DNA of 61,481 nucleotides from an uncultured Bacilli bacterium (GTDB taxonomy: Bacteria; Bacillota_I; Bacilli_A; RF39; UBA660): the NCBI GenBank assembly GCA_947593955.1, contig CANQDV010000001.1:1-61481 (forward strand). Direction: 5' to 3'. The stretch's first letter is position 1. The number at the start of each line of letters is the position of its first letter. Position numbers: made by a program. Below are positions 18,001-21,000 of this stretch, piece after piece.

Positions 18001-21000
18001 ATATTTAGTTCTTTATATAATGCTTGTTTTTCTTTAGCAGATATCTTGATATTGAATTTTTCTCTATCAATACCAATTCCATGAATAAGATATACTTTAG
18101 TTTTCATCTTTTCTTTTGCTATATTATAATCTTCTTCATTAATTGTTATAATAGCGTCGGTATATTTAGATAGATATTTTTCAATATTAAAATACATAAT
18201 CCAGTTTTTTAAAGGACCACCTTTATAAAAATGAAAGCCATGAGCCACATACACTATTTTCGTATTTTGTTTACGAATTTTACAATTTTTGGCAGCTAAC
18301 CTTGTTATTGCTCCTCCCATAGGAGTATGACAACTAATTAAATCAAAATGTTCTCTTTTAAGCAATTTTTTCATTTGCTTATAAGACCTTACGTTTTGCC
18401 TAATACTTAAACTCCTAGCAAAGTCTATATTATGTTTGACATTACAATAAGGAATATCTATATCCTCACTTTTAGCAGCCACATGTACTTCATAACCATT
18501 TTCTTGAAAATACTTTAATTGTGGTATTAAAAATTTTATGAAAAAAGAATCTAGATTAGCTGCAAATAGTACTTTTTTCACTCTCACCACACTCCTATCG
18601 CTTTATTTGAAAAAATTTTCTATTGCTTTTTTTGCTTCATATATTGAATCGCCATCTTGTCCCATAGCATATACATTCATATTAGGAAGACTATAACTAT
18701 TATCGATATATGTATCATAACCCACCAAATTTTGATTGGATATACTCCATGAACTCATAGTGCTAAGTTGCATTTTTACTAACCTAGCAATACTTTTAGC
18801 ATCTAGATTAGTATTAAAGCTATAACTTACACTATCGAGAATCTTAGTATAATTAGTTATAATAGTAGTTGATTTAGATACTTTGTTTATAACAGCGCTT
18901 ATAACTTTTTGTTGATCTTTAACTCTTTGAATATCACCATCGGTAAAGGAATGGCGTTCTCTTGCAAATATTAAAGCATGATATCCATCTAAATGATTAT
19001 AACCTTTAAAATAGCAAGTAGTAGGCAATCCATAAGCACAAAAGCTATAATCTGAATAAACATCTACTCCACCAATGGCATCTACTATTCCTTCAATGGT
19101 TGAAAAGTTAACTTTAACATAGTAGTTTATTTCAACATCTAATAAATCTTCTACTGCTAGTATAGACTCTTGAACGCCATAATAACCAGCATGAGTCAAT
19201 TTATCGTATGCATTATCACCTTGACCAGGTAATCTTACATAATAATCTCTTGGGATAGAAGTTAATAACATTTTTTTCTTAACAGGGTCAACACTTACAA
19301 TCATATTAACATCAGTATTAGTAACATTGCCAATAGAACCATAAGCATCACCGCCAGCTATATAAACATTAAATGGTGTGGTAGTAACATCAACTACTTT
19401 TACTACATCAACATGCTCAATAGGAACTAAAACACTACTAACACTTCTTAAACTCAACTCTAAATAATTTAATTCATTTTCTAACAAATTTTGAATAGAA
19501 TTATTTACTAATACGGCATCTACCTTGCCACTTTCTAATGCTTCAAACATATAAGTAATATCATCAAAATGTTCAGTATGAACTTTAACCTTCATTTGCA
19601 ATAAATCAATTGCATGATCAGCATTAACCGAATTATATACTCCAACATTAGCATCCTTCAAATTTTCCGTTTTCTTAATATTAGAATTTTGCAAAACCAT
19701 TATTTGATATTCTTCTTTTTGTAATAATGGATCATCAATAATGTCCATAAAACTTATCGTTTTAGTAATATATCTTATTCCTAAGCAAAAAAATAAACTT
19801 ATTAACACTAAAAAAATACTGGAAATTAACTTTATTCTAAATTTAATTTTTTTGAGTATTATAAGTCCTACTAATAAGATAAATATTAGTAGTGTCAAAA
19901 CAATTATTATTGCAATGTATTTTTCTGGTATCATATTTAAACTAATAACAAAATAATAAAATACAGCTGCAATAATAAGAGCTAAAAAAGCAATTATATA
20001 AAAAATAATGTTTGTAACTCTTTTGAAGATTTTCTTATTTTTTTTCATTTATTCACCTTTATCAAAACTAACATTCAGTGATTTTATTTTAGTACATATC
20101 ACTATTTTTGTCTACCCTTTCTTAATTTTTGACTTCTTTTTAAGGTCATTTTTGAATTTTTACTTTTCATAATAATTGCCTAACTCCATTATACTCCCCC
20201 CCCCCCCTGGTATAATGCAAGGCTCATATTAATTTTTTAAAATATAAGTATAAGTTTTATCTAATATCGTAAAATCTAAATAAACAGATGTAGCTCTTTT
20301 TAATTCACCTTTAACTTCATAATAAACATAATCACTAACATGATTAGGGGTTATATTGACAATTGGTACTTCTTGTTTATATTCTTTATCATCGATTATA
20401 TATCGAATATGACCAATACTAGTAATAAGTTCCTGGTCTAAATCATTATTATAAATTTTTTCATCAATATTGATATCAACTTTTAAACGCATTACCATCA
20501 TATTTTGTGTCGAATAAAATTTAGGGGTAATATAATCTGTTAAATTATAACAAGTATCAAGACATTGTTGATATTGATACATAAAATTATCACTTAGATC
20601 AAACTTATTTATAGTTATATTAGTATTATTCAATATACTTCCATTAAAATCTAACGTCTCATTTATTTTAGCGCTTTTTATCAATGTACTATTAGGTATC
20701 TTTTGGGCATTTAAACTTATTTTGATTAAATTATATGTTCTCACGCCTTCTACTTCTTTATAACTCTTTATATATTCTAATTGTTTTTTATGATCTTCAT
20801 ATTGCTTATCTATTTGAAATATAACTACCATAATACTTTCTTCTTTTGGCTGTAAAGTTAGTTTAGACAAAGAGTTTCCTAAAGCTTCAAATTGATTATT
20901 ATATTTAAGTGTTGGTGTATATGATATTCTAGTCCCTATTCTAAGACGAAAACTTTCGGCATAAATAGTTTTTTCTTCTTTTGATGTATTTTTAACATTA

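Follow-up and report, generated by a model that had tools for sequence, protein, structure and literature searches.

In Mycoplasma hyorhinis, a poly-A tract occupies the promoter spacer of each gene of the vlp family of surface lipoproteins. The cps locus of Streptococcus pneumoniae carries cpsA/wzg as the first gene behind the cps promoter, and we know of no homopolymer switch in that promoter. Campylobacter jejuni is not known to have mismatch repair genes. A poly-G tract between the -35 and -10 hexamers, with an optimal spacing of 17 nucleotides (nt), is experimentally established for tp0126 of Treponema pallidum and porA of Neisseria meningitidis (PMC7864442 and PMC2791445). Meningococcal porA (poly-G) and fetA and opc (poly-C) are described as cases of promoter-spacer phase variation (PMC2791445 and PMC7864442). 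In T. pallidum, tp0126, which encodes an OmpW homologue, and tprE/G/J/L have promoter poly-G tracts of 7-12, and most tracts of the genome vary within isolates (PMC7864442). C. jejuni and Haemophilus influenzae have many repeats per genome, concentrated in glycan-modifying enzymes (PMC8437040 and PMC13317227). Could a Gram-positive-type glycan operon be controlled in the same way? Here we analyse a run of twelve G's (G12) in the spacer of a promoter-like hexamer pair, at positions 20188..20220 of contig CANQDV010000001.1 from an uncultured Bacilli bacterium of the RF39 lineage (assembly GCA_947593955.1). The window, that is the whole stretch of DNA analysed, comprises 61,481 nt of this contig (contig C1), and the tract lies ahead of a polysaccharide operon that opens with a gene for an LCP protein. 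The assembly amounts to 1.41 Mb in 108 contigs, with 26.3% GC and 78% completeness.

Read on the minus strand, the site consists of TTGCAT (20220..20215), tatacca, G12 (20207..20196), ag and TATAAT (20193..20188), so that the hexamers are 7+12+2 = 21 nt apart; the plus strand around the tract reads ccattatact-C12-tggtataatgcaagg. We refer to the pair TTGCAT/TATAAT around G12 as P1. The original prediction had given the layout as TTGCAT-N7-G12-AG-TATAAT on the minus strand, which is what we find, and had placed it some 140 nt upstream of the LCP gene, which agrees with the 139 nt measured from the -10 to the start at 20048. Its 20-kb operon turned out to be shorter, with 14 genes in 16 kb (20048 to 4094). 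The elements of the site are as follows.

20196..20207, minus strand: homopolymer of twelve G's, read as C12 on the plus strand and presumed to be the element prone to slippage, in a genome where 0.004 runs of at least 10 are expected
20215..20220, minus strand: -35-like hexamer TTGCAT, of the TTGCAW class found in the 18 cassette promoters of this genome
20188..20193, minus strand: -10 hexamer TATAAT, 21 nt from the -35-like hexamer
20208..20216, plus strand: extended -10-like TGGTATAAT, directed antisense toward the 3' end of the DUF4352 gene, with a 2-nt overlap with the minus-strand -35
20187..20217, no strand: perfect 8-bp inverted repeat, CATTATAC (20187..20194) and GTATAATG (20210..20217), which brackets the tract and is the source of TATAAT on both strands
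20049..20187, minus strand: 139-nt leader, with a 22-codon open reading frame (ORF) and a second promoter-like site

Promoter-spacer repeat switches are recognised by an uninterrupted homopolymer of about 8 or more, by its position between sigma-70-type hexamers with a gene downstream on the same strand, and by a target that is a surface or envelope structure, of which a surface glycan operon is a typical example; a working switch would also vary in length, among close strains or inside a population, and transcription would change with it. Here the homopolymer is an uninterrupted G12, the hexamers and the same-strand gene are in place at sequence level, and the target genes encode the LCP protein, four GT4 glycosyltransferases, EpsG, Acyl_transf_3 and sugar-nucleotide enzymes. 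We propose that P1 would be a promoter of the sigma-A type ahead of the LCP-led glycan operon, and that the G12 in its spacer would be prone to slippage. At 21 nt, the spacer as sequenced would leave P1 silent or very weak (the OFF state). Loss of 2-4 G's through slipped-strand mispairing at replication would shorten the spacer to 17-19 nt and raise transcription. P1 would then most likely boost or dim the glycan genes in a heritable and reversible manner, rather than act as an absolute switch of 14 genes, a limited role suggested by the lack of an upstream terminator, by a nearer promoter-like site and by another such site within the operon. That G12 is a working length-dependent promoter-spacer switch or dimmer of the porA/tp0126 kind we regard as an even call, judging from sequence. 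It is very likely that the tract is length-variable in populations, given what is generally known of G12 runs; for this particular site, we infer that length varies, that P1 is used and that length affects transcription.

What argues that the tract is not accidental? With expectations computed from base composition, the genome should hold 0.004 G/C runs of at least 10 and 0.22 of at least 8; it holds 19 runs of at least 10, and 12 more of 8-9. The histogram of run lengths is bimodal (19 runs of length 6, 3 of 7, 11 of 8, 1 of 9, 5 of 10, 10 of 11 and 4 of 12). All 19 runs of at least 10 are intergenic, and in every case save an orphan G11 (4057..4067) the G's lie on the sense strand of the adjoining gene. 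The pattern TTGCAW-N7-8-G>=9-N0-5-TATAAT occurs nine times in this genome, nine times in one sister and twice in one genome of another genus, and not once in the other 198 genomes sampled from the family; the reversed control pattern was absent from all 201. The claim that the site is no product of chance is thereby borne out: long G/C runs exceed expectation by far, and the architecture recurs about 20 times in this genome, as well as in its sisters.

The shorter runs are associated with glycan chemistry. Runs of G8-9 lie in frame inside seven glycan-type genes, namely four of the Acyl_transf_3 family, a hexapeptide transferase, a sugar-transfer ATP-grasp protein and an epimerase-like protein. 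One of the seven is in the window; the other six are these.

C8:7439, 21275, 24073 and 29711, in frame: G8-9 runs in two Acyl_transf_3 genes, the sugar-transfer ATP-grasp gene and the epimerase-like gene
C23:12776, in frame: G8-9 run in an Acyl_transf_3 gene
C28:14816, in frame: G8-9 run in the hexapeptide transferase gene, adjoining a second LCP paralogue

At least three glycan loci of the genome therefore carry repeats. Promoters of a second class have a shorter tract. In this class, a fifth Acyl_transf_3 gene is preceded by TTGACA-gaaagtc-G10-TACAAT, with a spacer of 17 nt (C38:12576-12585), and TTGACWWTC-G8-N5-7-TATAAT occurs with spacers of 16-18 nt (C51:2135, C70:115, C89:3445, C100:774). 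Behind the copies other than that on C100 lie a GT2-GtrA gene and the genes for a secreted protein of 297 aa and a surface protein of 1060 aa. A strong excess of long repeats, concentrated in genes for surface structures, is the mark of a set of contingency loci (a 'phasome'), and this genome has both. Glycan genes appear to be a preferred poly-G target here, and the site is very probably one of about 30 slippage-prone poly-G loci aimed at enzymes that modify glycans and at surface proteins. Open genes for MutS and MutL occur here and in 20 of 21 relatives. Missing mismatch repair is thereby ruled out as the driver, and slippage should proceed at rates closer to Neisseria than to Campylobacter.

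Two other poly-G runs stand apart from these classes. On contig C5 (13892-13903), a G12 stops 5 nt short of the start codon (ATG) for a protein of 274 aa without family match, behind a good TTGACG-17-TATAAT promoter. Situated where the ribosome-binding site is expected, this tract may be a length-variable Shine-Dalgarno element. The orphan G11, on the plus strand just past the stop codon of the alanine racemase gene, is not in a promoter. Together with the C11 of the window's cassette (with 3974..3987), it makes a 14-nt inverted repeat that encloses the alanine racemase terminator and the cassette -35. A 16-kb inversion of the operon through the oppositely oriented G11 (4057..4067) and C12 (20196..20207) was considered and rejected: efficient recombination needs more than a homopolymer of 11 bp, and the operon, as read from the sequence, would gain no usable -35 when inverted.

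Most of the long runs belong to one conserved cassette, which accounts for 15 of the 19 and for three additional copies cut at contig ends (18 in total). It begins with a terminator hairpin and a T-run, continues with TTGCAA-AAYCCYTA-G10-12-TATAAT and a conserved leader, and is followed by a gene whose product is secreted or anchored.

C6:354, C6:39831, C10:148-178, C20-C25, C31-C35, C49, C53, C58, C67, C80 and window 3971..4001: cassette copies

Most cassettes precede members of a surface-protein family with the conserved N-terminus ISVGYSIFNTSLTINGTANIASTWNILF / VGYSIFNTSLTINGTANIASTW, for which no curated family gave a match above threshold. The cassette in the window (3971..4001) drives instead a 568-aa multi-pass membrane protein, without family match, beside a UbiA prenyltransferase. 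Contig ends hold 13 of the 18, so that the repeated cassette and gene 5' end break the assembly. Among intact copies the flanks are nearly identical while the tract is G10, G11 or G12, and the tract is therefore the labile part.

The cassette is kept across the genus (L148-L166 in sister genome G001; L129-L147 in G008 and G003), with a -35 specific to the species: TTGCAA, TTGCCA or TTGAAA. In the nearly closed sister genomes G008 and G003, all 19 runs of at least G10 are in the cassette, with G10-G12. Sister G001 has the variant TTGAAA-N7-G10-14-TATAAT, whose spacers span 17-21 nt. The spacer of 21 nt is thus found in intact family promoters of a sister genome (for example L159), which makes it a state reached by live switches. 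No G9 occurs among the cassette copies of the genus, where tracts are G10-G14; this spread, in cassettes that are otherwise conserved, lends indirect support to length variation at the site studied. For these G-rich spacers, 18 nt (G10) may be the ON state, because an ON state at 17 nt only would leave every gene of the family OFF in every consensus.

Is the site ahead of the LCP gene another copy of this cassette? Compared with the genus cassette (TTGCMAAAWYCCYTA-Gn-TATAATG), both flanks gave local alignments no better than shuffles, which rules out a diverged copy, and no terminator lies upstream. The site would appear to work like a cassette without being a copy of one, the hexamers being all that the two seem to share. 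Given the non-homologous flanks, the same design arose independently at the site, and in our judgement this independent origin is the strongest argument that the design is selected.

When 185,579 species were scanned more widely, each by a single genome, the architecture turned up in 84 places, mostly in metagenome-assembled genomes (MAGs) of uncultured gut Bacilli from rabbit, human, mouse and chicken, and in a few candidate-phyla bacteria and streptococci; the readable downstream ORFs, inspected by eye, mostly looked secreted or surface-like. TTGCAA-N7-G9-10-(N0-3)-TATAAT precedes various other surface-related genes, with differences of 1-2 G between paralogues. The downstream proteins of Streptococcus pseudopneumoniae and S. 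suis (L035, L050, L084, L088) start with YSIRK-type signal sequences. Type IV pilin-like genes follow the design in a Dissulfurispiraceae MAG and in MAGs labelled 'uncultured bacterium' (L024, L040, L056, L089), and a WXG100-like gene follows it in two Erysipelotrichaceae MAGs (L043, L080).

The site itself recurs within its species. In the protein collection this species is rare: homologue searches and cluster members yielded only two other contigs, from ENA ERZ27060145 (1.8x coverage) and ERZ27249446 (2.7x). The first base of contig L097 is that of TATAATGGAG, while contig L127 stops at TTGCATTATACCAGGG; each break falls exactly at the tract, so that neither contig carries length information. 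Both flanks recur identically in the two samples, and the tract is therefore real and kept, in three samples altogether. Exact look-ups of the LCP and DUF4352 proteins returned no match, and metagenomes scanned with both flanks together, and again with a single flank, gave 0 matches. The leader contains an ORF on the minus strand (20170..20102) of 22 codons, very basic, reading MKSKNSKMTLKRSQKLRKGRQK, with GGAG 13 nt upstream; it is identical in L097, and its translation is putative. For structured RNA or a riboswitch in the leader, Rfam gave no match at E up to 5, and the fold z-score was 0.03.

Does P1 drive the operon? In favour of P1 as the operon promoter, both hexamers look like good ones. 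Spacing evidently matters in this host, since TTGACA, the host consensus -35, stands 17 nt from TATAAT 14 times against 1.7 expected; a spacer of 21 nt should therefore be inactive, and one of 17-19 nt active. The OFF or weak state originally predicted for 21 nt fits this peak, the spacer being outside the host range. Several observations weigh against a spacer switch at this site. The spacer exceeds the optimum by 3-4 nt and the cassettes of this genome (18-20 nt) by 1-3 nt. An AG separates the tract from the -10, unlike in the cassettes, and there is no TG. The leader, at 139 nt, is long beside the cassette leaders of about 35-50 nt. The DUF4352 gene has its stop codon (20231..20229) only 8 nt from the P1 -35, and no terminator is predicted between this gene and the LCP gene. 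A hairpin and T10 terminator does lie ahead of the DUF4352 gene (21908..21875); with a terminator before the gene and none after it, read-through into the LCP gene is plausible. A nearer promoter-like site, TAGACA (20114..20109)-17-TAAAAT (20091..20086), is also available, and the operon may thus not need P1. An extended -10, TGATATAAT (7665..7657), lies within the operon, ahead of ugd-ddl-alr. For these reasons (no upstream terminator, the nearer site and the internal extended -10), total ON/OFF control of all operon genes by P1 is unlikely, and the idea that the site governs the operon as a whole is weakened. Intact MutS and MutL would lower slippage rates in comparison with Campylobacter-type genomes. 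Contig breaks at the tract in the other samples may reflect only their low coverage (1.8x, 2.7x). Finally, the target is unusual: not one of 31 LCP loci homologous to this one in the family shows a run of at least 7 within 1.5 kb, and none of the poly-G sites of at least G9 examined in sisters (19 in G008 and G003, 19 in G001) precedes a glycan gene or operon. In another sister, G006 (L128 2209..2218; G006:C2:38709), a G10 lies in frame in a 172-aa hexapeptide-transferase-like ORF, 2.4 kb upstream of an LCP gene; glycan loci are targeted there too, inside a gene and not in a promoter.

Much of this could also be taken to mean that the tract is a hypermutable but idle relic, in a promoter that has decayed or is locked OFF, while the operon is served by read-through from the DUF4352 gene or by TAGACA-17-TAAAAT. 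The tract would then have drifted long because nothing selects on it, and its length would be without phenotype. A spacer beyond the range of 18-20 nt, the lack of a terminator upstream together with an alternative promoter-like site, and the uniqueness of the site, which has no equivalent at relatives' LCP loci or sister poly-G tracts, all suit this explanation. Yet an unselected G12 in a genome of 26% GC with intact mismatch repair should erode by point mutation, and here it is uninterrupted, with both hexamers intact and flanks identical in three samples. The length of 21 nt loses weight as well, considering the intact cassettes of the sister genome with the same spacer, and the nearer site is matched no better than chance allows in AT-rich DNA (28 such sites found vs 20.8 in shuffles). 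We think an idle relic rather doubtful, if well worth keeping in mind. Still more would follow if the site faced both ways, with TGGTATAAT driving an RNA antisense to the DUF4352 gene, into its 3' end, in competition with the overlapping minus-strand promoter, and with tract length deciding which of them polymerase takes. A toggle between two outputs was part of the original prediction. The extended -10 does exist at 20208..20216, where it abuts the tract and overlaps TTGCAT by 2 nt; we estimate that an extended -10 beside a tract should be met in about 3% of such genomes (19 tracts, two sides), TGNTATAAT making up 6.9% of all TATAAT sites in the genome, and the inverted repeat is perfect over 8 bp. 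However, this repeat and the second -10 are one observation and not two, no plus-strand gene and no structured or known RNA lies downstream, and no mirror -10 accompanies the other tracts of this genome or its sisters. Since the sequence offers the plus strand no -35 partner at any tract length, length would not tune a promoter there directly, and the proposed toggle finds no support. A reciprocal toggle could in principle work through competition for the overlapping site, one slippage event then switching two functions of the envelope in opposite directions; we hold such a two-faced promoter to be very improbable.

MerR-type promoters have spacers of 19-20 bp. In a comparable manner, a regulator might bind the dyad CATTATAC-N15-GTATAATG or the G tract itself and realign or block the hexamers of a long-spacer promoter, so that the tract would be a binding or structural element and not a length switch. 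An over-long spacer spanned by a dyad is indeed what the site has. But the spacer is 21 nt and not 19-20, and the neighbouring genes (DUF4352, bPH_3, thioredoxin and two whose proteins have no family) show no regulator domain, so that we reject a MerR-type promoter as such. The 18 other promoters here with G tracts of varying length argue, moreover, for length as the variable, and we give a protein-dependent promoter only a slim chance. Could the tract be a coincidence or an assembly artefact, such as the poly-G of two-colour sequencing chemistry? Runs of G17-18 with junk flanks at some contig ends of G001 do look like sequencing artefacts. The tract studied here is, by contrast, internal to a 61-kb contig and has unique flanks, both of which recur exactly in two other samples; with 0.004 runs of at least 10 expected vs 19, and the reversed control at 0 in 201 genomes, chance and artefact are effectively refuted. 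A length-dependent spacer switch, acting as a dimmer, is the explanation that we favour.

The genes that such a switch would affect, and those around them, are arranged as follows.

20229..21839, minus strand: DUF4352 membrane protein gene, upstream of the LCP gene
18603..20048, minus strand: gene for a CpsA-type LCP glycopolymer transferase, first of the operon (PF03816, 2.9e-38)
4094..18590, minus strand: 13 further operon genes, with intergenic gaps of at most 66 nt
9573..9580, minus strand: G8 run within the Acyl_transf_3 gene (8658..9728), in frame as sequenced, a candidate second switch of the locus
7657..7665, minus strand: extended -10 TGATATAAT, internal to the operon, in the gap of 66 nt that precedes ugd-ddl-alr

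The best full-length NCBIfam profile for the LCP protein is NF051849 (LCP_trans_Cps2A), with 297 bits, under its equivalog cut-off. Two GT4 genes, an EpsG-type polymerase, a further GT4 gene, two TupA-like ATP-grasp genes and a fourth GT4 gene follow in this order; the tail comprises a 503-aa membrane protein, Acyl_transf_3, an epimerase/dehydratase, UDP-glucose dehydrogenase, a Ddl-like ligase and alanine racemase. The G8 at 9573..9580 comes some 150 nt after the start of the Acyl_transf_3 gene and may be a switch, acting on translation, of glycan O-acylation. Alanine racemase (4094..5230) is encoded by the sole copy in this incomplete (78%) assembly, and the Ddl-like ligase has a 32%-identical paralogue on contig C12. 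Because of the internal extended -10 and the sole alr copy, the operon tail (ugd-ddl-alr) probably has its own expression. As for a horizontally acquired island, no compositional break was seen at the tract. In sister species, other genes come after the DUF4352 orthologue, in one case with a terminator there; glycan locus and tract are therefore lineage-specific. The intergenic region had no DNA match in 40 relatives.

What would a spacer switch in this place mean? A small-genome, uncultured gut commensal would switch a cell-wall glycan operon at its promoter by DNA slippage. About 18 surface-protein promoters and about seven glycan-modifying genes would together amount to a set of contingency loci as large as those of Campylobacter or Neisseria, although the bacterium is no pathogen and its mismatch repair is intact. 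For metagenomics, poly-G tracts break assemblies, and single-consensus MAGs conceal the surface heterogeneity of populations. Taken as a lone site, the tract would be of modest significance, its presumed mechanism being classic. A full-text literature search for RF39 together with phase variation found no relevant paper.

How, then, does the locus compare with the systems already described? Like meningococcal porA, fetA and opc (PMC2791445 and PMC7864442), it has a homopolymer between the hexamers whose length sets spacing and would, through it, set transcription, with a surface structure as target. Unlike porA, it precedes a 14-gene Gram-positive-type glycan operon and not a single outer-membrane protein; its spacer as sequenced is 21 nt, and its host is an uncultured commensal. 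The resemblance to T. pallidum (PMC7864442) lies in the many poly-G tracts per genome and in the position of the tract in a promoter. The treponemal genome differs in being GC-rich and in having outer-membrane targets, whereas the tracts described here are extreme outliers at 26% GC. Intragenic G8-9 runs in acyltransferase and transferase genes recall the contingency loci of Campylobacter and Haemophilus (PMC8437040). The repeats of those organisms are mostly intragenic and translational, in contrast to the present site, which lies in a promoter and would act on a whole operon; and unlike C. jejuni, this bacterium has mismatch repair genes. The best analogue of the 18-copy cassette family is vlp of M. 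hyorhinis, with one homopolymer-spacer cassette for each variable surface-protein gene. Unlike vlp, the site studied is no cassette copy and would drive a glycan operon, and its tract is G and not A. Like the cps locus of S. pneumoniae, it belongs to a Wzy-type polysaccharide operon that is opened by a CpsA-type LCP gene (LCP_trans_Cps2A) and includes an EpsG-type polymerase. Three things are new in comparison with all of these: the lineage of the host, a site that arose on its own next to a cassette family, and a target that is the promoter of a glycan operon led by an LCP gene. The mechanism would be the classic one.

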